Positions 29,433 to 39,870 of a DNA stretch of 64,000 bases are shown here, piece by piece. The translations under genes and the position numbers were made by a program. The stretch's first letter is position 1; each line of letters begins with the position of its first letter. The notes beneath the pieces were generated by a model. That model ran no database searches. It was given only the letters and a program-made list of their open reading frames with translations, and was not told where the DNA came from. This DNA is from a candidate division CPR3 bacterium GWF2_35_18 (GTDB lineage Bacteria > Patescibacteriota > CPR3 > GWF2-35-18): the NCBI GenBank assembly GCA_001771135.1, contig MESW01000005.1, forward strand, positions 17,467-81,466. Reading direction: 5' to 3'.

Positions 29433-30302
29433 CTAGACAATCCGACCGCCCTCTTTGATCATCCAGGCATAAAAGTCCCCCGGGCGGGAATGAGCAAAAC
29501 CGATATCAAAGCGTAAGAAAATATCTTTATAATCAGTATTGATAAATACAGTTCGGAATTTATCCTCAAGACCATCGAAACTGACGCCATAGGGATCGGG
29601 AAGAAGGTTGAAAACTTCTGCCCGCGTTAACGTGGTCTCGATGTCAAACTGCATCACTGGCACTTTGTTGTAATCGGAATAAACAAATTCGAACTTCGGA
29701 TTGCGATTTACTGTGGTATTCGTGATCCCTTTTTCATTTTCGGCTTTGGTACAGGGAATGATAAACGGCCACTCCTCACCCTCCGGGTAACGGACAAGGT
29801 AACAACTTTCCGCAATCATTTCCCGAAAGGAAAGATATTCTTTTTCCGGGATATCCACGCTCGAAAAGTTCATTCCGGTATGATTCACCTCTTTGCATTT
29901 TCCTTTGAATCGCGAAAGTAACTGTGCTAGCGTCAACTGATAATATTTCTTACGATTAGCGGTAACGACGCAATATTCGCCCGCTGCATCTTTTTTGATT
30001 TCAAATTTTTTATTTGAATCAGAAGCCGATTGTAATTTCGGTACATTGAAACCAAAGCGCAAACCACCAGCTTGATAGAGTTTTTGTGGTATTTCCGGAT
30101 CCTGAAATGAAACCGATACCGCTTCTTCGTCAAAAAATATTTCCGTGGTAGGAAGAAGTTTCCGACTACCGAGAGTTATAGTCTTGTCATTAAGCATTTT
30201 CACGTTATGGCAAGATGATAATAACGAAATGAAATCAGCAGCAAAGCTCTGATTCCAAGGAGCAGTAGATTTTCTGAGTTTGAGTTGGATGTTATTAATC
30301 AT
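29433..30302 (-). CDS. Hypothetical 289-aa cytoplasmic protein, the last gene of the hsd-linked gene string.
   Basis: ORF. It lies 29 nt downstream of the receiver-like gene with the same orientation. Confidence 0.45.
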   Translation of the reverse strand: MINNIQLKLRKSTAPWNQSFAADFISLLSSCHNVKMLNDKTITLGSRKLLPTTEIFFDEEAVSVSFQDPEIPQKLYQAGGLRFGFNVPKLQSASDSNKKFEIKKDAAGEYCVVTANRKKYYQLTLAQLLSRFKGKCKEVNHTGMNFSSVDIPEKEYLSFREMIAESCYLVRYPEGEEWPFIIPCTKAENEKGITNTTVNRNPKFEFVYSDYNKVPVMQFDIETTLTRAEVFNLLPDPYGVSFDGLEDKFRTVFINTDYKDIFLRFDIGFAHSRPGDFYAWMIKEGGRIV

Positions 30303-30331
30303 AAAATTATACTTCTAAAATATATTATTTT

Positions 30332-30721
30332 TTAAATCTGATTTGCTTGCTGATCATCAAAAAAGCGTTTTATTTCGTTTGATAATTGTTCCAATGTCAA
30401 AGATGATTTTATAAGAAATTTGATCGCTCCAAGTTTTAAACACTCATTAACTATTTGTTCATTACCGAGATTTGAACAGACCATGATAGGAGTATTTTTT
30501 GAAATGTCATTCGATTTAATTCTTTTTATTACTTGCATTCCGTCAAATTTTGGAAGCATTATGCAAGTGATAATTAAATCGTACTTATTAGTAAAAGCTA
30601 AGTTAATGCCTTTTTCACCATCCAGAGCAAAATCAACAGTATAACCTGCTCCTTCGAATGACTCTTTCAAAATTGAAACTAAATAATCACTATCTTCAAT
30701 CCAAAGTATTTTTTTAGGCAT
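30332..30721 (-). CDS. Stand-alone CheY-like receiver (REC) domain with Cys in place of the phospho-acceptor Asp (atypical or pseudo-receiver).
   Basis: Aligning to CheY, the acidic pocket is WIEDSD (CheY VVDDFS), the conserved Lys is in FLIKS, and YDLIITCIMLPKFDG aligns with YGFVISDWNMPNMDG. This places Cys at the D57 position. Thr87 is also replaced (MVCSN). It starts 6 nt after the hsdR stop. Confidence 0.6.
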   Translation of the reverse strand: MPKKILWIEDSDYLVSILKESFEGAGYTVDFALDGEKGINLAFTNKYDLIITCIMLPKFDGMQVIKRIKSNDISKNTPIMVCSNLGNEQIVNECLKLGAIKFLIKSSLTLEQLSNEIKRFFDDQQANQI

Positions 30722-30726
30722 AAAAA

Positions 30727-33165
30727 TTATTTATATAAATATTCAGAATTTATTTTTGCATACAGATTTTTCTGAAACGCAAAGAAAATTGATCTAATAT
30801 CTTCAACATCACCAAGAGACTCTTCTGCATTTGCAATTGCTTGATATTTTAGATTCAACAATACTGGTAGTTTTTCTTCGTCCAATTCTTCAACACCCTT
30901 TTCTTCATATTTAGATAAAACAAAATCCAAGAATTCTTTTTGTTTTGTATCTAAACCTTTGTAAATTTTATCTTTTGATTGTTCAACTCGCTGCACCCTC
31001 GTAATCGGTTGAGTTAAAAATGATATGTATGAAAGTACGTCGAATAAATCACTCTGTTCTGCATCAATCATTTTTTGTAATGTTTCTAGTTCATCCCTAC
31101 CATAACCAATTTCCGCTATTTTATCTAAAAATGCCTTACGAGTTGTCGGGTTGGACCAAATCTTTCGGAGCTCTTCTTCACTTTGGAAAAACTCCGGCAT
31201 GGTACCAAACATCTTATCCATAAACTCCTGAATTGAAATCGGTTTTCCATCGGCACTCCAAAATGAAGTTGCAATCATGTGTTTTATCTCTCGTTCTTTC
31301 CCATCCCGTAATTTAATTTTCAATATTTTTTTCGGTGTATTTCCACATTGACATGGAAATTTCCCGCATACAGGACATAATGCATGTTCTTTAATACATA
31401 CGCATGGTTCTTGCCCACAAACCGGACAAATTCTAGGAGGCTTTACATCACAAATACAAGGATCCTTTCCACACTTTAAACAAATTTCAGCCATTGATTC
31501 ACCATCCCATTCCGGATCAGAAAAATGCTTGTGAGCATCAACAAAGTCATATATCGTAAAATATTCTTTTCCGTCAAAAAGTCTCGTTCCTCGACCAATA
31601 ATCTGTTTGAACTCAATCATGGAATTGATTGGTCTCATCAAAACAATATTTCGGATATTACGTGCGTCCACTCCGGTAGAAAGTTTTTGTGAAGTCGTGA
31701 GAATTGTGGGTATTGTTTTTTCATTATCTTGAAATTCACGTAAAAACTGATCTCCTCGAGCTCCATCATTGGCAGTAACGCGGACACAATAATTTGGATC
31801 TTTACTATCTTTCATTTGATTAATTAAGTCTCGAACCGCCAGCGCATGATCTTGGGTGGCGCAGAATATAATCGTCTTTTCGTTTTGGTTTATTTCATCT
31901 AATATTACACGAACTCTTTTGGCCTCACGCTCTTTGATAACAATAATTCGATTGAAATCAGGTTCTTCATAAATTTTGCCTTCTTCTACTTCTCCTTCAA
32001 TTATTTGATCGTCAGAAGTATACACATAATCATCAATTGTGGTTTTGATTCGTTTAATTTTGAAAGGTGTCAGAAATCCATCGTTTACACCTTCTTTGAG
32101 AGAATAAATATATACTGGTTCTCCAAAATATTTATAAGTATCAATATTATCTTTTCTTTTTGGAGTAGCCGTGAGACCAAGCTGAACTGCTGGAGAAAAA
32201 TATTCCATAATCCCTCGCCAATTACCTTCATCATTTGCCCCGCCACGATGACATTCGTCAATAATAATAAAATCAAAGAAGTCAGGAGGATAATCGCCAA
32301 AATATGGCGAACCATTTGGACCGCTCACAAAAGTTTGGAAAATCGTAAAATAAACACTCCCACTCATTGGAACTCCACCTTTTTTACGAATATCAAGGGT
32401 ATTGATACGAACTAGCGCATCAGAAGGAAATGCGGAAAAGTTATTGTATGCTTGATCAGCTAAAATATTTCTATCAGCCAAAAATAATATTCTTGGTCTA
32501 CGAGCTCCATCTCGTTTCAGATTCCAACGAGTTTGAAAAAGTTTCCAAGCTACTTGAAAAGCCACGGCAGTTTTTCCGGTTCCAGTTGCCATGGTCAAAA
32601 GAATTCTAGGTTTTTCTTCTGATACTGCATTCAAAATATTATTGATGGCAATTTCTTGATAATACCGTTTTCCGTATTCGCCTTCATTAGGTATGCTGGC
32701 AAATTTATCTTTCCATTCATTCCAACCCGCTTTGCCAGCAGGTAGGTCTAAAAATGTTTTATTCCATAATTCTAAAGGAGTCGGAAAACTGGCAATATTT
32801 CCTTCTTTTCCAGTTTCCATGGAGATTTCATAAAGCTCTTTACCATTAGTGGAATAGGTATAGTTAATCTTCATTTTTTGCGCATACGCTTTGGCTTGAG
32901 CCACACCTTCAGTCGCTTCAAAGTTTTCAGCTTTAGCTTCTATGACTGCAATTTTGCGATTTTTATATACCAAAATATAATCAGCAATCTCTGATTTACT
33001 TCGAACTCCCCCGGACTGAATTCTTCCTTCGGTAATACGATATTCACGCAGGATTTTTGATCCTTCGACTTCACCCCAACCACTAGCTTTTAATTTTGGA
33101 TCAATATATTCGGCTCTTGTTTCTGATTCGTTCATATTATTTCCTAAATAGTTTAATATAATCAT
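30727..33165 (-). CDS. hsdR: Type I restriction enzyme R subunit (EcoEI/type IB-like, 812 aa), with an unusual Cys-rich triple CPxCGxxPCxC insertion.
   Basis: The N-terminal HSDR_N PD-(D/E)xK nuclease has D...IEAK. The SF2 helicase motifs are I (TMATGTGKT), II (DECHR) and VI (QIIGRGTR). The C-terminal region is EcoEI_R_C-like. Confidence 0.85.
31348..31482 (-). other. Cys-rich zinc-ribbon-like insertion inside HsdR (residues about 562-606). It holds three tandem C-P/K-x-C-G-x-x-P-C-x-C units.
   Basis: [22 protein letters not shown] and [11 protein letters not shown] sit between the helicase C-terminal motif VI and the EcoEI_R_C-like tail. Confidence 0.5.
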
Positions 33166-34279
33166 CCATCACAAAAATACGGTTTCGGGAAAAACCTGTT
33201 TTTTCCTTTAGAATACCTAAGGTTACAAAATCCTGCACTAGGTTATTTGCAGCGACATACTGAATATCAAGAATTTTTTCCACGTTTTTAATACTTATCA
33301 CCGGTTCAGAAAACAAATTTATGAGGAGATCTCGTCCTCTCTTGGACTTTTTACCCAAGGTGGAAATCTTACCCTCAAAGATACTTCGAAGGGTAATAAT
33401 ATTCTCAAAGGTTCTTTTTGATTTTTTTGCGGTCTCGGTCACACCTTCCAAGAAAAATAAAATCCACTGCCCCAAATCATCACTTCTTCTTACCTTATCA
33501 AGAGAGTCATAATAAGATTGTCTATGTGTCTCAAAAAAATCAGATATGTACAGAACAGGATATTTCAAAAACTTTTTCTCAATAAGCTGAAGAGAAATAA
33601 CTAAACGACCAATACGCCCATTACCGTCTAAAAATGGATGAATAGTTTCGAATTGATAGTGTCCAATTGCTATTTTAATAAGGACAGGTATGTCGAGAGA
33701 ATTGTTATGCCAAAACTTTTCCCAATCAGATAGTAATTCCGGAAGATGCTGAATATGTGGGGGAACGAAATGGGCGGTATCTATAGATGCACCACCAATC
33801 CAATTTTGACTTGTGCGAACTTCTCCGGGGCGTTTAACTTCTCCCCGCACACCAGACAAAAGAATATGATGCACTTCTTTAACCAAACGCATGGAAACAG
33901 GTAACTGCTTCAAATTACTAATCGCTTGATTCATGGCCGTTATGTAATTCTGAACTTCTTTCCAATCATCTCTTTTTTCTGGATCAATTTCATCCTCTGA
34001 GAGAAGAGCTTCATCCATTCCCGTCTTTGTGCCTTCAATCTTTGACGAACTCACTGCCTCAGACATCACATGCATCTGGATAAAAAAATCTACATCCGGC
34101 ACGAGCGTCCCGTAAGCATTGAGCTCCCCCAAAAGTCGCGTAGCTTCTTCCAAAGAGACCAATATCTTTTTATTATCTATATCAAAGTCATGATTAACGA
34201 GTGTCGGTAAAAAATACTCATAATGATGAGCTGTGTTCGGTTCAAAAACTATATTTTTACCTGATGTATAATTCTTCAT
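33137..34279 (-). CDS. fic: Fic family protein (Fic/Doc adenylyltransferase fold), embedded between hsdS and hsdR.
   Basis: Canonical Fic motif [12 protein letters not shown]. It overlaps the hsdR start by 29 nt. Confidence 0.85.
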
Positions 34280-34394
34280 AAAAGTAATATAACATTCCTT
34301 ATTATTATTTGCAAGGCTAAAAGATAATATAAATAATCATACTATCTTTTGAATTCTGCCAAAAATCTATAATTCTACACCAAAAACTCTTTCG

Positions 34395-34445
34395 TCATTG
34401 TCATTCCCGTCCCCGCCTTCGCGAGGATAAACTCCAGCGGGAATC
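34395..34445. repeat. GC-rich structured patch with nested inverted repeats (ATTCCCG...CGGGAAT and CCCGC...GCGGG) in the hsdS-fic intergenic region.
   Basis: gtcattcccgtccccgccttcgcgaggataaactccagcgggaatcc is compositionally unlike its AT-rich surroundings. Confidence 0.35.
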
Positions 34446-34450
34446 CAGAT

Positions 34451-35632
34451 TTATAGTTCTCCATTAAAAGCTTTTTTGAGAACTGATTTTTTCAGTTCTT
34501 CTAGATCTGCTATTTTTTGTTTATATATTGCTTCCAGCTTTTTGGTTTCAGCAGAAAGCGCATCGAGTTTGGCGACGATGGATTTTTGTTCGGGAATAGA
34601 TGGAATATCAATTTTTTGAATTTTAAAAATTGCATGCGTAATGTCTGGTTGAGCCACTCTTCCAGCTAGATCTAAAATTTTGGATTTAAAAATTGGATTT
34701 TGTAACCAAATAAACAAATAATCCTTGGTTAATACTGATTTCGGTACAATCTTAAATGAGTTGTTATGCAAAATACCTTTCCTACCCCTAAAAACTAACC
34801 CTAATGAGCCCGTTCTTGTATAAATAATGTCTGATTCGTTTACGAGAGCATTTTTAGGGTAATTATTAGGATCAATATATTGTTCTTCTGTATTATTTTT
34901 TAAGTCCTTAATCCTTAATAAGGGTAAATTACTTTTTTTAACTAATGCATGTTTAGTTTTAGCATTTATAGCTATTCCTTGGTATAAATCACAAACATCG
35001 CCCAAACTTTTTTCTTCCCAATCCTTCCCCGGATTTGCAAAGACACTCTGCAAATACGATTCAAAAAGCTCTTTTGTATTTTGGAGATTTTTTCCCGCAT
35101 TTTCTTTCGCTTTTTCTATCTTTTCAAAAACCTCATCCAGGATTTTGACGATGCGGTGTTGTTCGGAGAGGGATGGGAGAGGGATTTTTATTTGTTTTAA
35201 AATCTTAACTGAAGCAACGTTTTTAATTGCCACCCCTTTTGAAATTTTTTTTAGACTATCTTGAAAGCCTTTGCTTTGCATCCATAACTTCAAAAATTCA
35301 TTTGATATTTGTTTTGATGGGGTTAATTTCAGCAATGCTTGATTAATTATTCCTTTTTTAATGTTTTTTGGAGCTATTGCTATTTTTCCCATTGTTCCCG
35401 AACAGCTCATTATTAAATCACCTGATTTTAATTCAAATCTTTCCATTTCTTTAAATTTTTTTTCATCAATAAAGTATCGGCTATTATCAAATTGATTGTA
35501 AATTGCATGCTGTTGCTCATAAACCGCATAACCGTCTTTCTTGAAAATAGATTTCGTAAGACTTCCCCCGAAAGGTCCTCTTACAAAATCACAAACCTCA
35601 CCGAGTTTTTTTGTTTGCCAGTTAGTTTTCAT
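34451..35632 (-). CDS. hsdS: Type I restriction-modification specificity subunit with two target-recognition domains.
   Basis: Duplicated TRD architecture with conserved central and C-terminal spacer repeats (LPSLSEQHRIVKILDEVF... and IPSIPEQKSIVAKLDAL...). Confidence 0.85.
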   Translation of the reverse strand: MKTNWQTKKLGEVCDFVRGPFGGSLTKSIFKKDGYAVYEQQHAIYNQFDNSRYFIDEKKFKEMERFELKSGDLIMSCSGTMGKIAIAPKNIKKGIINQALLKLTPSKQISNEFLKLWMQSKGFQDSLKKISKGVAIKNVASVKILKQIKIPLPSLSEQHRIVKILDEVFEKIEKAKENAGKNLQNTKELFESYLQSVFANPGKDWEEKSLGDVCDLYQGIAINAKTKHALVKKSNLPLLRIKDLKNNTEEQYIDPNNYPKNALVNESDIIYTRTGSLGLVFRGRKGILHNNSFKIVPKSVLTKDYLFIWLQNPIFKSKILDLAGRVAQPDITHAIFKIQKIDIPSIPEQKSIVAKLDALSAETKKLEAIYKQKIADLEELKKSVLKKAFNGEL

Positions 35633-37617
35633 ACTTTTCTTGTTAAATCAATAATCATTGGGACATTTGATTTTACTGCCTTTCCTGCAACTATTGCGTT
35701 GTATTGTTTTAAATTTGGCAACGTCAACACAAGATCTTTTCCAACATAATTACCTAAAAAATTAAAACTTGTTTCATCAAATGCTTGGAAACAGATTACT
35801 GTATTACATTGAGTCAAAATTGTTTTTGAGACATTTGCCGTTCTCTGTGCAATAACAAGCAAACCAATTCCATATTTTCTTCCCTGTAGAGCTATTTGCC
35901 CCATTTTATTTACAATTGCCTTGCTATCGAAATTATTAACTCCTAAAAAGGATGCTTCTGGTACTATTGTATGAGCTTCTTCTAATACAAGAGATATTTT
36001 TGTGGGGGTTTTTTCATCATATTTCTTTTTTGAAAAATTAAATATTGCTTCAAAAAGTTTCTCGGTTGCATTTATAACTTCAACTGTATTACTCATTACT
36101 GGCAATTCAACGATACCAATTTTATCTGAACCATTTAGAAAATTATCAATATTGTCTTTATTTAAAACTGTAACAATAACTTTAATATTTTCTAATTCCG
36201 TTTTCCATTCGCCGGTAAAATCAACACAGATAATTTTAGTATCTTTTGTAAGTTCTTTTATAATTTCGCGGGCTAGAAAAGATTTTCCCGATCCAGTTAC
36301 CCCTAAAAGTGCCATATGATGACTAACAGCATGATCTAGGTTAATAACAGAGGGTAGTGTCGTATTTGGGATTATCCCGAGTTTGTATTCAGGATATTTA
36401 AAACTTTTCACCTTTATATCAGATGTATTTGCTTTAAAAACTGGAGTATTGATAGACGGAACCCAACCAAATTTTTGAAATGATAATTTATCATTTTGCC
36501 ATTCTCCAAGCTGAATTGCTTCACCCTCAATAAAGCCAGTTTCGTTTTGGGCTTCTAACTTCTCTTTTTCAGTACTACCTGCAATTACTTGATAAAATAA
36601 TCTCTTATCGCCGACCTTTAATTCAAGCAAATCACCTTCCTGTAAGTCATCACTCTTTTTTGAATACTCAAATTTAATTTTTCCAATAGTAGAGTTTTCA
36701 ATAACTATGCCCACAAGACTATCAACATTTAATTCTTTATTTGTTGTATCAACCTCCTCAGAGTCAATTATTTTATAAACCATGTTTTTTTCTAGCTTTC
36801 CACCTTTTTTTTCAATTTCTCCTAATTGAAGAATTTTTGCCCATTTTCCCTGATTTAGTAAATATGTATCAAAAACTATTCCTGTAATAATAAAATCTAT
36901 TGTATCTTGCATGGAATACATAAACTTAACCACATCAAATTTTTTTATACTCTTTCTGTCCTTAAGAAGCTTTACAAGAAAAATCTTTTTTGACTGAACG
37001 CCAAATATTTCCCCAATCTGATCCCCTACGTCCTTTTTAATAGAAATGGCGAAACTTCCGTGAATATTTTTCGGATTTATTGATAAAATACAAAACCACA
37101 AAATGAATAAAATCAGAGTGTAGAGATTCTGAATTGAATGGTACGTTAGTAAAAAATAAATAAAGACAGAAGAATAAAGTACTCGCCCCTGCCCAATAAT
37201 AACCACAACATCTTTAAGTTTAGTTGCTACTTTATTTCCCCAATAATCTGGACTTTTATCCTTATCATCAAGAGAAAGTGCAATTATGGAGGCGGCGAGA
37301 AGTAGAATCAATATAACAATCGTTGTCCACCAAAACACTATATTCTCAAAAGAAGTTTTAATTGCGAGGAATACCAATAAAAGTGGAATTACGTTTGTGA
37401 TGACATTTTTCGGCGAGGTGTAATAGGGTTCAACGAATAAAATAGAAAACATAATCATAAAAATGCCTGAATAAAACCATAGATCTTTAGTTTCTGTGCT
37501 TGGTAAAAAAGTTCCAAAAGAAAAATATTGGACAATCACAAAAACAACAAAAAAAATGCCAAATATTATGAATCTATTTTTCGTTAAAAAACTAATATTT
37601 TTAAATAAATCTTTCAT
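35629..37617 (-). CDS. Membrane-anchored HerA/DUF87-like P-loop ATPase. It has about 6 N-terminal TMs and a HAS-barrel-like segment. The ATPase core has Walker A (GVTGSGKS) and Walker B (LVLEEAHT). It is embedded between hsdM and hsdS.
   Basis: HHMALLGVTGSGKSFLAREI and QGRKYGIGLLVIAQRTANVSKTILTQCNTVICFQAFDETSFNFLG match the HerA/DUF87 core. The first 200 aa are six hydrophobic helices. It overlaps both neighbours by 4 nt (ATGA), indicating translational coupling. Confidence 0.65.
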   Translation of the reverse strand: MKDLFKNISFLTKNRFIIFGIFFVVFVIVQYFSFGTFLPSTETKDLWFYSGIFMIMFSILFVEPYYTSPKNVITNVIPLLLVFLAIKTSFENIVFWWTTIVILILLLAASIIALSLDDKDKSPDYWGNKVATKLKDVVVIIGQGRVLYSSVFIYFLLTYHSIQNLYTLILFILWFCILSINPKNIHGSFAISIKKDVGDQIGEIFGVQSKKIFLVKLLKDRKSIKKFDVVKFMYSMQDTIDFIITGIVFDTYLLNQGKWAKILQLGEIEKKGGKLEKNMVYKIIDSEEVDTTNKELNVDSLVGIVIENSTIGKIKFEYSKKSDDLQEGDLLELKVGDKRLFYQVIAGSTEKEKLEAQNETGFIEGEAIQLGEWQNDKLSFQKFGWVPSINTPVFKANTSDIKVKSFKYPEYKLGIIPNTTLPSVINLDHAVSHHMALLGVTGSGKSFLAREIIKELTKDTKIICVDFTGEWKTELENIKVIVTVLNKDNIDNFLNGSDKIGIVELPVMSNTVEVINATEKLFEAIFNFSKKKYDEKTPTKISLVLEEAHTIVPEASFLGVNNFDSKAIVNKMGQIALQGRKYGIGLLVIAQRTANVSKTILTQCNTVICFQAFDETSFNFLGNYVGKDLVLTLPNLKQYNAIVAGKAVKSNVPMIIDLTRKV

Positions 37618-39065
37618 ATAAGTTTTTTAATATTACTTAAAATATTACCACTCTCCTCGTCCAGCTTCCTCATCTCTTTTAGTATATCCTTCGGTTCTCT
37701 CAAAACCACTTCATCATTTTTATTCGGATTTTTGACTGATAAATCAAATGTTTTTTGATCAATATTCTTCACATCCTCACTCCACGAATTTCCACTATCT
37801 GCCTTCGTCTTTTGCAATTCCACAAATTCCGCCAAATCGTTTTCATTTAAGGGATGACCTTTACCGAGATTACGAGCGAGATTGAGCTGGTAGAACCACA
37901 CTTTTTTCGTCGGCGCGCCTTTTTCGAAAAACAAGACCACAGTCTTTACCCCAGCTCCAGCAAAAACCCCACCAGGTAAATCAAGCACCGTGTGCAGATT
38001 ACAATTCTCTAGAAGGAGTTTGCGCAAAGAAACAGAGGCATTATCAGTATTGCTTAGAAAAGTATTCTTGATAACAATACCAGCCTTCCCGCCAGCTTTT
38101 AGAATTTTAATAAAATGTTGGAGAAAAAGAAAAGCCGTTTCGCCAGTCTTGATCGGGAAGTTTTGTTGGATTTCTCGTCCGATACCAGCACCAAAAGGTG
38201 GATTAGCAAGAACTACATCGTAACGATCTTTTTCTTGAATATCGTTAATATTTTCCGAAAGCGTATTCATATGTCTGATATTCGGCGCTTCAATACCGTG
38301 CAGGATCATATTCATGATGCCGATGATGTAAGCGAGAGATTTTATCTCTTTACCATAAAAAGTTTTATTTTGAAGTCTTTCCATCTCACCCGAAGAAAGC
38401 GTGGATTTATTCTGCATAAGATAATTATAAGATTCCACCAAAAATCCTGCGCTTCCACAAGCGCCATCATAAATAGTTTCACCAATCTTCGGTTTCACTA
38501 CCTTAACAATAGTTTTAATAAGTGGCCGTGGCGTGTAGTATTCACCACCGTTTCGTCCGGCGTTCCCCATATTCTTAATTTTCGCCTCATAGAGATGAGA
38601 AAGCTCGTGTTTCTCTTCGTACAAGCGAAAATGCATACCATCCACAATATTCAAAATCTTCCGTAAGGTATAACCGCTCACTATTTTATTTTTCAGCTCA
38701 TGAAAAATCTCACCAATTTTATACTCAATAGTGTTTGGTTCTTCTGCTCTGAATTTCTTAAGATAGGGAAAAAGTTTGTTGTTTACGAAATCTTTAAGAT
38801 CATCACCATCCAGCGCTTTGTTGTGATCCAATTTACCATCGCCATTTTTGGGACAAGCCCATGTGTTCCATCGGTATTCTGGAGATAAAATATATTCGTA
38901 TTTCTTACCAGCTAGAGCTGCTTCTGTCTTTTTGGTCTCCTCGAGATCATCCAGATATTTTAGAAATAGAATCCAGGAAGTTTGTTCAACATAATCAAGT
39001 TCCGTAGCACAACCAGAATCAGTACGAAGAATATCATCAATGTTTTTAAAGGATTGTTCAAACAT
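37614..39065 (-). CDS. hsdM: Type I restriction-modification N6-adenine DNA methyltransferase subunit.
   Basis: HsdM N-terminal domain, the YYTPRPLIKTIV motif, a SAM-binding DGACGSAGFL motif and the catalytic NPPFG. Confidence 0.9.
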   Translation of the reverse strand: MFEQSFKNIDDILRTDSGCATELDYVEQTSWILFLKYLDDLEETKKTEAALAGKKYEYILSPEYRWNTWACPKNGDGKLDHNKALDGDDLKDFVNNKLFPYLKKFRAEEPNTIEYKIGEIFHELKNKIVSGYTLRKILNIVDGMHFRLYEEKHELSHLYEAKIKNMGNAGRNGGEYYTPRPLIKTIVKVVKPKIGETIYDGACGSAGFLVESYNYLMQNKSTLSSGEMERLQNKTFYGKEIKSLAYIIGIMNMILHGIEAPNIRHMNTLSENINDIQEKDRYDVVLANPPFGAGIGREIQQNFPIKTGETAFLFLQHFIKILKAGGKAGIVIKNTFLSNTDNASVSLRKLLLENCNLHTVLDLPGGVFAGAGVKTVVLFFEKGAPTKKVWFYQLNLARNLGKGHPLNENDLAEFVELQKTKADSGNSWSEDVKNIDQKTFDLSVKNPNKNDEVVLREPKDILKEMRKLDEESGNILSNIKKLI

Positions 39066-39152: not shown

Positions 39153-39629
39153 TTACAATCCCCACTTCTTCATCTCATACCTTCCACTCTTCTCAAGCAA
39201 ACTAATCTCCTCTTTGATCACCTTAATATCTTCATCATTAAGTGGAATGAAGGGATCGTAGAAACCAGTGGCGCGGTCGGGGAGATAGACGGATTCCGGA
39301 AGAGGCTGATATTTCACGCCCAGAACCCGACCAAAAACATGCATATGTAAAACCGGCTTTTTATTTTGCTTCCACGCCCAATTTCCCATCTCCTGATAGT
39401 TAATCTTAAGAACCGGTATTCCCCGCCTATTCATGCCTTTATAGAGCGCTTCCCCCATCATCGAGTATAGACGTATATATTCAATCGCCTGACGCGGAGT
39501 CAACATCGTGCAGTCTTGGATAGACTCGTCAAGCGAATAAACGCGCAGATGCCCGCCTTCTTCACGGCTCACAAACGGTTTTGGGTGTGGATGCACTGTA
39601 AAATTTTCGGTTTTGTAGATTTCAATCAC
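39153..39629 (-). CDS. HIT-like (histidine triad superfamily) protein; divergent member.
   Basis: FTVHPHPKPFVSREEGGHLRV and LHMHVFGR form a partial HxHx motif. Confidence is low. Confidence 0.4.
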   Translation of the reverse strand: MIEIYKTENFTVHPHPKPFVSREEGGHLRVYSLDESIQDCTMLTPRQAIEYIRLYSMMGEALYKGMNRRGIPVLKINYQEMGNWAWKQNKKPVLHMHVFGRVLGVKYQPLPESVYLPDRATGFYDPFIPLNDEDIKVIKEEISLLEKSGRYEMKKWGL

Positions 39630-39793: not shown

Positions 39794-39870
39794 TGGTCGG
39801 GGATACTGGACTCGAACCAGCGACCTTACGCACCCCATGCGTACGTTCTAGCCATCTGAACTAATCCCCG
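39794..39870 (-). tRNA. tRNA-Pro (anticodon GGG), 77 nt with encoded CCA.
   Basis: Folded by hand. The acceptor stem is CGGGGAT/ATCCCCG, the D-stem GTTC/GAAC, the anticodon stem TACGC/GCGTA with loop A-T-GGG-G-T, and the T-arm GCTGG-TTCGAGT-CCAGT, with discriminator A plus CCA. Confidence 0.85.

Follow-up and report, generated by a model that had tools for sequence, protein, structure and literature searches.

What can a receiver (REC) domain do when a cysteine stands in the place of its phospho-acceptor aspartate, and does such a protein belong to the type I restriction-modification (R-M) locus that it directly follows? Both questions are raised by a stand-alone receiver gene in a 64,000-nucleotide (nt) stretch of contig MESW01000005.1 (hereafter the window) from the candidate division CPR3 bacterium GWF2_35_18, a member of a candidate phylum for which NCBI holds nine taxa only. 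We find that the protein joins a known but uncharacterised class, the aspartate-less receivers with an acceptor cysteine (Cys-ALRs), that its adjacency to hsdR is not a conserved R-M linkage, and that it may act as an interaction module independent of phosphorylation.

A receiver domain with a cysteine at the acceptor site

The protein encoded by the gene (Table 1) corresponds to NCBI entry KKP69656.1 of candidate division CPR3 bacterium GW2011_GWF2_35_18 (assembly GCA_000990575.1). It qualifies as a receiver domain both by its Pfam score and by its predicted fold. The match to PF00072 is strong (E=7.9e-20, 71.5 bits against a cut-off of 30.2) and covers profile positions 1-108 of 111. An AlphaFold2 model computed from a five-sequence alignment (predicted local distance difference test, pLDDT, 93.3; predicted template-modelling score 0.88) has the (beta-alpha)5 topology, with predicted strands at residues 4-8, 28-32, 49-52, 79-83 and 99-104 alternating with helices at residues 12-24, 35-44, 61-69, 88-97 and 110-128; the active-site positions fall at the C-terminal ends of beta1, beta3, beta4 and beta5. 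Foldseek superposes this model on the solved receivers RR468, RpaA, ArlR, PhoB and CheY with template-modelling (TM) scores of 0.83-0.90 and root-mean-square deviations of 1.2-1.7 A. In the model the protein ends with alpha5 and carries no output domain. The receiver domain that the original prediction had recognised from the sequence at 30332-30721 is thus confirmed, on the minus strand.

The same prediction held that a cysteine replaces the phospho-acceptor aspartate, and four independent alignments all place Cys53 opposite D57 of CheY, which rules out an alternative alignment with an Asp at this site. For example, phmmer against PDB chains pairs DLIITCIMLP with DLIVLDVMLP of PhoP and DVVILDIMLP of DrrD, and BLASTP pairs YDLIITCIMLP with YGFVISDWNMP of E. 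coli CheY. Cys53 also falls in the acceptor column of a MAFFT alignment with canonical relatives. Column statistics were taken from 403 REC-domain alignments drawn from the 150 best matches of a search of representative proteins. In this sample the acceptor residue is Asp in 393 domains, while Cys occurs in this family only and in none of the 401 domains from outside it. The protein is therefore without means to form an acyl-phosphate and, as had been proposed, conventional phosphorylation on Asp is not possible, the acceptor being Cys53.

The rest of the active site is intact. By the position names of Bourret et al. 2025 (PMC12632262), DD1, DD2, T, K, K-3 (Phe102), D+4 (Pro57) and D+8 (Gly61) are all retained, and the protein differs at D only; four of the five catalytic residues (E9, D10, S83 and K105) are retained, the acceptor Asp being the exception. 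The acidic pocket and the conserved Lys noted earlier (E9, D10 and K105) are thus indeed present. The equivalent of CheY Thr87, on the other hand, had also been read as a cysteine, and this assignment was off by one residue: the position is occupied by Ser83, whose column has 223 S and 158 T among the 403 domains, whereas the second cysteine, Cys82, aligns with CheY V86. As this cysteine does not lie at the T87 position, there is no second alteration of the active site. The Cys82 column is mostly L, I, V, F or M and contains Cys in seven of the 403 domains; a third cysteine, Cys94, occupies a small-residue position in alpha4 at which 31 of the 403 domains have Cys. An intramolecular Cys53-Cys82 disulfide finds no support in the location of Cys82 at the T-1 core position. 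The T+1 residue is Asn, and the same Asn is found in the MAFFT alignment in two Asp-bearing relatives, P0003 and the receiver of contig L020 described below; it is thus a trait of the lineage and not a sign of decay. By the definitions given in the literature (PMC12632262, PMC4395418), the protein is both a pseudo-receiver, or aspartate-less receiver (ALR), and a Cys-ALR.

Table 1. Positions, within the window, of the receiver gene, its active-site codons and its neighbours
Feature	Position	Strand	Evidence or remark
Stand-alone receiver (REC) gene	30332..30721	minus	ATG at 30721, stop 30332-30334; 129 aa
Cys53 codon (TGC), at the phospho-acceptor Asp position (CheY D57), directly after beta3 (residues 49-52)	30563..30565	minus	alignments
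E9 and D10 codons, metal-binding acidic pair kept (CheY D12, D13)	30692..30697	minus	alignments; invariant in orthologue
Cys82 codon (TGT; hydrophobic T-1, CheY V86) and Ser83 codon (TCA; T87 equivalent)	30473..30478	minus	column statistics, alignments
F102 to K105 (FLIK): aromatic switch residue (CheY Y106) and conserved Lys (CheY K109)	30407..30418	minus	alignments
Spacer, hsdR stop to REC start, 5 nt	30722..30726	minus	homology with orthologue locus L001 ends here
hsdR, EcoAI/FtnUII-family type I restriction subunit	30727..33165	minus	NF046051, 806 bits; Pfam ResIII and EcoEI_R_C
SoFic-like Fic/DOC protein	33137-34279	minus	PADLOC SoFic, E=1e-118
hsdS	34451-35632	minus	Pfam
TM-HerA/DUF87 ATPase, 662 aa	35629-37617	minus	Pfam; PADLOC HerA 5e-32, also mad8 2e-17
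hsdM	37614-39065	minus	Pfam
tRNA-Pro(GGG), far edge of the island	39794..39870	minus	Rfam; possible integration landmark
orf289, VOC-superfamily-like, downstream neighbour	29433..30302	minus	AlphaFold2 pLDDT 91.8; no Pfam match

Conservation and selection

The family is very small. Independent assemblies from a single groundwater site together have at least 21-24 contigs that encode an identical protein. A whole-database word search among 5.8 billion proteins returned two 90%-identity clusters only; among 1.84 billion representatives, the family amounts to one 50%-identity cluster, and exhaustive scanning of these with HMMER gave no further relative above about 37% identity. Similarly, the best relative in a metagenome scan is 37% identical, and a scan of genome contigs for longer contigs of the orthologue or close relatives yielded only ordinary regulators, at no more than 42% identity. 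When ribosomal protein S9 was used as the query, the nearest non-identical relative was 72% identical and lay on contigs of less than 3 kb. No relative was detected on IMG/VR viral contigs, and a phage origin of the gene was rejected on this basis.

The sole diverged orthologue, P0002, is 76% identical and keeps C53, C82 and C94. The Cys53 codon differs synonymously between the two (TGC in the window, TGT in P0002). Over 125 codons we estimated 0.70 synonymous (dS) and 0.13 non-synonymous (dN) substitutions per site, hence a dN/dS of 0.19, and the contrast between the two kinds of changes is highly significant (Fisher p=1e-9). These codon comparisons indicate that the gene is under purifying selection. 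They also bear on the reading under which the cysteine is a sequencing or assembly error, or the protein a functionless remnant of a lost two-component system. Such an origin would account for the missing kinase partner and for the tiny size of the family, but it conflicts with the presence of an identical protein in many independent assemblies, with the intact open reading frame (ORF) and with the confidently predicted fold. Moreover, as the orthologue's Cys53 codon differs by a synonymous change and dN/dS is low, assembly error and decaying pseudogene are excluded. We consider this reading largely refuted, and leave it hardly any probability.

Differences between the two orthologues are concentrated in helix alpha1, where nine of 14 positions have changed, as against 21 of 111 elsewhere (p=7.6e-4). 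In helix alpha4 only two of 10 positions have changed, although across receivers generally this helix is as variable as alpha1 (3.13 vs 3.23 bits). Helix alpha1 is the main kinase-docking surface of receivers, while alpha4-beta5-alpha5 is the usual output surface. Drawn from two sequences, the pattern is suggestive at most, and would fit the loss of a kinase partner with retention of the output interface.

Descent from kinase-coupled regulators

The closest Asp-bearing relative with a usable genomic context (L020:10001-10372) is a 123-aa protein with an acceptor Asp; it is 37% identical to, and shares the N-terminus MPKKILW[IV]ED as well as S-N-L at T, T+1 and T+2 with, the protein of the window. 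Its gene lies 2 nt downstream of one for a 556-aa membrane protein with HisKA and HATPase_c domains (the pair spans L020:8328-10372). This Asp-bearing, kinase-adjoining relative indicates that the Cys-bearing family derives from ordinary kinase-coupled single-domain regulators. In the window itself, no HisKA/HATPase_c protein was found among the about 45 ORFs scanned, in agreement with the earlier remark that the window lacks a histidine kinase.

In one alternative reading, Cys53 would still accept phosphoryl groups by means of the Mg2+ site, Ser83 and Lys105, the donor being a small molecule, an Hpt protein or a kinase encoded elsewhere. Transfer from His to Cys in the sugar phosphotransferase system is an analogue of such a relay. 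The metal pair, the S/T residue and the Lys, which are needed only for phosphoryl chemistry, are all kept. Nevertheless, phosphorylation of an acceptor-site Cys is not known from any natural receiver, the 64-kb window contains no kinase, and the helix that would dock one is the fastest-evolving part of the protein. The Asn at T+1 is not one of the small residues (Ala or Gly) that give access to the site, although the canonical relatives share it. Finally, no post-translational modification other than phosphorylation by kinases has been described at a receiver acceptor site (PMC4395418). We thus regard an S-phosphocysteine relay as very improbable.

Genomic neighbourhood and the link with restriction-modification

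The receiver gene directly follows hsdR, an EcoAI-family gene, as had been reported; its start codon lies 5 nt past the hsdR stop. The genes upstream of it on that strand form a composite defence island (33137..39065 and hsdR), whose far boundary is marked by tRNA-Pro and the ribosomal-protein superoperon. The original prediction took the short distance to hsdR as a sign of membership in an R-M or defence operon. No terminator- or promoter-like site was found between the two genes on their strand, although scan counts were at chance level, so that this is absence of evidence only; co-transcription of hsdR and the receiver gene is therefore likely. The short gap itself is ordinary, since 35% of the 66 same-strand gaps in the window measure 5 nt or less (median 25 nt) and nearly all genes of the window lie on the minus strand.

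The locus of the orthologue allows a comparison. P0002 is carried by two short contigs of the same aquifer project, L001 and L002. Instead of hsdR, at least six direct repeats of 36 nt (GTTTATTCCTTATAAGAGATTTCTACTTTTGTAGAT), separated by unique spacers of 25-29 nt, lie upstream of it. This array of clustered regularly interspaced short palindromic repeats (CRISPR; L001:39-390 and L002:19-299) has the same orientation as the P0002 gene, and closes with a degenerate repeat whose end lies 13 nt ahead of the P0002 ATG. The homology between the two genomes starts exactly at the receiver start codon. As the orthologue follows a CRISPR array and homology begins at that codon, the linkage with R-M genes is not conserved; all copies linked to hsdR come from one population (at least 99.7% nucleotide identity), and hsdR, hsdM and hsdS do not consistently co-occur with the receiver, as would be expected for an accessory of type I R-M. 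The claim of R-M operon membership is thus not supported: the gene is still likely transcribed with hsdR, but it is not a conserved member of the R-M system. The converse possibility raised with that claim, namely a common ALR unrelated to R-M, is half right, for the protein is an ALR and its R-M linkage is not conserved, yet it is a rare Cys-ALR rather than a common type.

Of the 19 positions of the standard Cas12a crRNA handle (AAUUUCUACUGUUGUAGAU), which we found as a Cas12a scaffold in 46 papers, 17 are identical in the 3' end of the repeat (GAUUUCUACUUUUGUAGAU), where the 5-bp stem is intact. The array would accordingly be of type V-A (Cas12a); as no cas gene was detected on L001 or L002, we infer this type from the repeat only. 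No CRISPR-DR family matched L001 at the Rfam gathering threshold, and literature searches for the exact repeat and for the assembly accession gave no match. Two further observations concern these repeats. In L002 the spacer ATTTTAATAAGGAGGATAATCCTATGC occurs twice in tandem, while L001 has a different spacer at this place. In addition, the 19-mer GATTTCTACTTTTGTAGAT, a repeat end of Cas12a type, is present exactly once in each of 11 IMG/VR viral contigs (L080-L090); these copies could be solitary repeat units, mini-arrays on phages or chance matches.

Contigs L001, L002 and a third one, L003, come from three assemblies and carry either the orthologue or a strain variant; each of them stops 4-25 nt past the end of the receiver gene (window about 30307-30332). 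These ends may be breakpoints of strain variation or merely reflect low coverage. The other end of L003, at 31126, coincides with a scaffold gap of L066 (31125-31147). L066 was itself considered as a variant with a disrupted hsdR and an intact receiver gene, and was rejected because its breaks are scaffold N-runs.

A possible accessory of defence loci in general

In a broader alternative, the receiver belongs to, or regulates, mobile defence loci of any kind, here a type I R-M/HerA/SoFic island in one genome and CRISPR-Cas12a in another. It might, for example, serve as a sensor, or hold defence activity in check, with its gene being read at the 3' end of a defence transcript. Both copies lie directly 3' of a defence locus and on its strand, after gaps of 5 and 13 nt without a terminator-like site, and the contig ends just past the receiver stop suggest that the downstream side is variable too. 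The GC content at third codon positions (GC3) of the receiver gene (0.23) matches that of hsdR, HerA and hsdS (0.23-0.26) and not that of the downstream genes (0.35-0.42). DtcB of Detocs also shows that a stand-alone receiver can be part of a defence operon. However, these are two observations only, and co-orientation and short gaps are the default in the window, where nearly all genes are on one strand and tightly packed. No significant defence match was obtained with PADLOC-DB v2, the C-terminal region of PD-T4-6 giving a generic receiver-like hit (E=4e-4, 17 bits), and viral contigs carry no relatives. The nearest relatives are ordinary kinase-coupled regulators, the two neighbouring systems have no component in common on which a shared regulator could act, and Detocs needs DtcA, DtcC and an acceptor Asp, none of which is present. 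On this evidence, a role as defence accessory seems rather unlikely.

The genes downstream of the receiver look like housekeeping genes: orf289, two small membrane or secreted proteins, DUF2177, a pyrimidine-dimer glycosylase, YecM, a glycosyltransferase and RecA. The model of orf289 consistently matches two-domain VOC enzymes (HPPD, BphC and glyoxalase I) in Foldseek at E~1e-5 but with TM scores of about 0.3. Its family is restricted to Patescibacteria, has no Pfam model and shows the invariant motifs NHxGxNF, YPxGEEWPF and RNPKFE; in one genome a relative adjoins the YecM gene, as is nearly the case in the window. We rejected orf289 as a conserved partner of the receiver, as its homologues in other Patescibacteria never adjoin a receiver gene and its own fold is VOC-like.

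Several features of the island are worth recording on their own. The HerA/DUF87 ATPase has a long multi-pass transmembrane N-terminus, and its gene overlaps both hsdM and hsdS by 4 nt; the type I R-M operon thus seems to include it as an integral component. The SoFic-like gene lies between hsdS and hsdR and abuts the hsdR start, giving an island composed of type I R-M, HerA and SoFic. HsdR itself contains, at residues about 557-607 (window about 31340-31500, minus strand), a Cys-rich insert with repeated CxxCG / CPVCG motifs, which is located between the helicase C-domain and EcoEI_R_C, outside all Pfam matches, and looks like tandem zinc-ribbon knuckles. Between tRNA-Pro and hsdM, a 158-aa ORF (39153-39629, minus strand) without Pfam or PADLOC match has the highest GC3 of the region (0.51 vs 0.23-0.42) and a HMHVFGR motif reminiscent of the HIT histidine triad; it may be foreign, or mark the island edge. 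A repeat search found no att-like repeats of tRNA-Pro at the island boundaries, and GC profiles were mildly informative only. No Rfam family was detected near the receiver gene, the window containing only tRNA-Pro and an RNase P RNA (RF00010, 8717-8983, 120.9 bits). The latter measures 267 nt, as compared with 367 positions in the model, and lies on the plus strand amid genes that are almost all on the minus strand.

How the protein may work

The original prediction had offered two modes of action, a pseudo-receiver acting through protein-protein interaction and a redox or thiol-modified switch, and both readings are live. To the first we give about an even chance: the protein would be an orphan, stand-alone Cys-ALR pseudo-receiver, working as an interaction module independently of phosphorylation. 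In this scenario, the lineage would have lost its kinase partner and the Asp, leaving a small protein that signals through the conserved alpha4-beta5-alpha5 face and whose activity is presumably set mainly by its expression level. Transcription would probably occur by read-through from whichever locus lies upstream, and the gene would adjoin hsdR because it sits where a variable slot for defence islands ends, in a genome with tight packing, and not as a member of the R-M system. Such a mode of action has parallels, as most characterised bacterial pseudo-receiver proteins are orphans, many of them constitutively active and regulated indirectly (PMC12632262).

Several points weigh against this interpretation. 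With only two diverged sequences, conservation of the pocket, like the alpha1 pattern, is suggestive without being significant; at 24% divergence the seven named sites would all be unchanged by chance in about 15% of cases. A full remaining pocket is unusual, DD2 being non-acidic in about 80% of pseudo-receivers (PMC12632262); its integrity is therefore a hint of chemistry or metal binding, which favours a thiol switch. A defence locus of the same orientation also precedes both known copies, at a distance of 13 nt or less, and the island-like GC3 of the gene would fit a looser association with defence islands.

If Cys53 were a thiol switch, it would be the sensory residue of a redox or metal sensor within the intact acidic metal-binding pocket. 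If the thiol were oxidised (to sulfenic or sulfinic acid) or S-thiolated, or bound a soft metal, negative charge or bulk would come to lie at the site of the acyl-phosphate, whereupon Ser83 and Phe102 would flip (Y-T coupling) and switch the output face. Retention of all other pocket residues and of both Y-T coupling residues is atypical for pseudo-receivers (PMC12632262), and Cys53 has been kept across a dS of 0.7, although with two sequences this retention is indistinguishable from general purifying selection. Redox sensing was proposed for Cys-ALRs by Maule et al. (PMC4395418), and redox-regulated pseudo-receivers do exist (RitR and HP1021/CemR), even if these use a Cys in the linker or at DD+19 and not at the acceptor. 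The fold evidently tolerates a Cys at this position and an adduct on it mimics activation, as an anionic thiophosphonate on CheY D57C (PDB 1C4W) stands in for phospho-CheY (PMC7012829). Against a thiol switch, no redox genes are adjacent, and as Cys82 and Cys94 lie at positions where Cys is unremarkable, Cys53 has no evident disulfide partner. We hold such a switch to be the foremost rival reading, possible though not likely.

These readings are not mutually exclusive. They may be joined in a proposition that we put forward as quite improbable, namely that Cys53 is the thiol-based input (through oxidation, an S-adduct, a soft metal or S-phosphorylation) of a kinase-less switch, expressed from the upstream defence locus and coupling the state of the cell to defence. 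If Cys53 does act as a thiol input, this would be the first natural receiver to signal through non-Asp acceptor chemistry, and a new kind of defence-island accessory; any chemical activity of Cys53 would amount to a new way of driving the receiver switch. If, on the contrary, the protein simply acts as a constitutive adaptor, it adds an unremarkable case to a known class. In either case it is a minimal test case, being a protein of 129 aa in which only the nucleophile is changed, with an Asp-bearing, kinase-coupled relative (L020) as comparator. The question is of some generality: pseudo-receivers make up several percent of a very abundant domain and their switching is largely obscure (PMC12632262), and no receiver with an acceptor Cys has been characterised to date. 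There is also a practical consequence, as the public annotation of KKP69656.1 (also given as hypothetical) would wrongly imply phosphorelay signalling in a sparsely sampled phylum.

Comparison with known systems

The fold, size, DD, T, K and K-3 residues of the protein are those of canonical single-domain receivers such as CheY, Spo0F and RR468 (TM 0.85-0.9 to the latter). It differs from them, and from the L020 relative, by the replacement of Asp with Cys, the lack of an adjoining kinase and the fastest divergence in alpha1. Among defence-associated receivers, DtcB of Detocs is likewise a stand-alone receiver in or beside an anti-phage locus, but it needs its acceptor Asp, the DtcA kinase and the DtcC receiver-PNP effector (bioRxiv 10.1101/2023.01.24.525353); with neither a kinase nor a second receiver in the window, and a Cys as acceptor, the locus described here is not a Detocs system.

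RitR of S. pneumoniae and HP1021/CemR of Campylobacterota come close in another respect, as they are orphan aspartate-less receivers controlled through a Cys thiol. Their reactive Cys is located in the linker (RitR) or at DD+19 (HP1021/CemR) rather than at the acceptor site, and they possess DNA-binding domains and dimerise through disulfides (PMC12632262), whereas the CPR3 protein has no output domain and no Cys in residues 25-31 (AGYTVDF), so that it is not of the RitR/HP1021 type. Phosphono-CheY (the D57C thiophosphonate, PDB 1C4W) does share a Cys at the acceptor of a single-domain receiver, but is a product of chemical alkylation in the laboratory and not a natural protein or modification.

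The closest match is thus the class of Cys-ALRs itself. ALRs represent about 4% of REC domains, and among 74,816 unique REC proteins Cys was the seventh commonest replacement, found in 26 of 2,976 ALRs (PMC4395418). These Cys-ALRs were named in 2015 by Maule et al. (PMC4395418), and our full-text literature search retrieved no follow-up work on them. Like the protein studied here, they match PF00072 with a Cys at the acceptor position and are of uncharacterised function (PMC4395418). They were, however, described in HTH, wHTH, DsbA, GGDEF, EAL, HDOD, histidine kinase and other architectures, from cultured Proteobacteria, Actinobacteria and similar groups. The CPR3 protein differs from these catalogued examples in being a minimal stand-alone domain from a barely sampled phylum, with the remaining active site whole and with defence loci beside both of its known copies.

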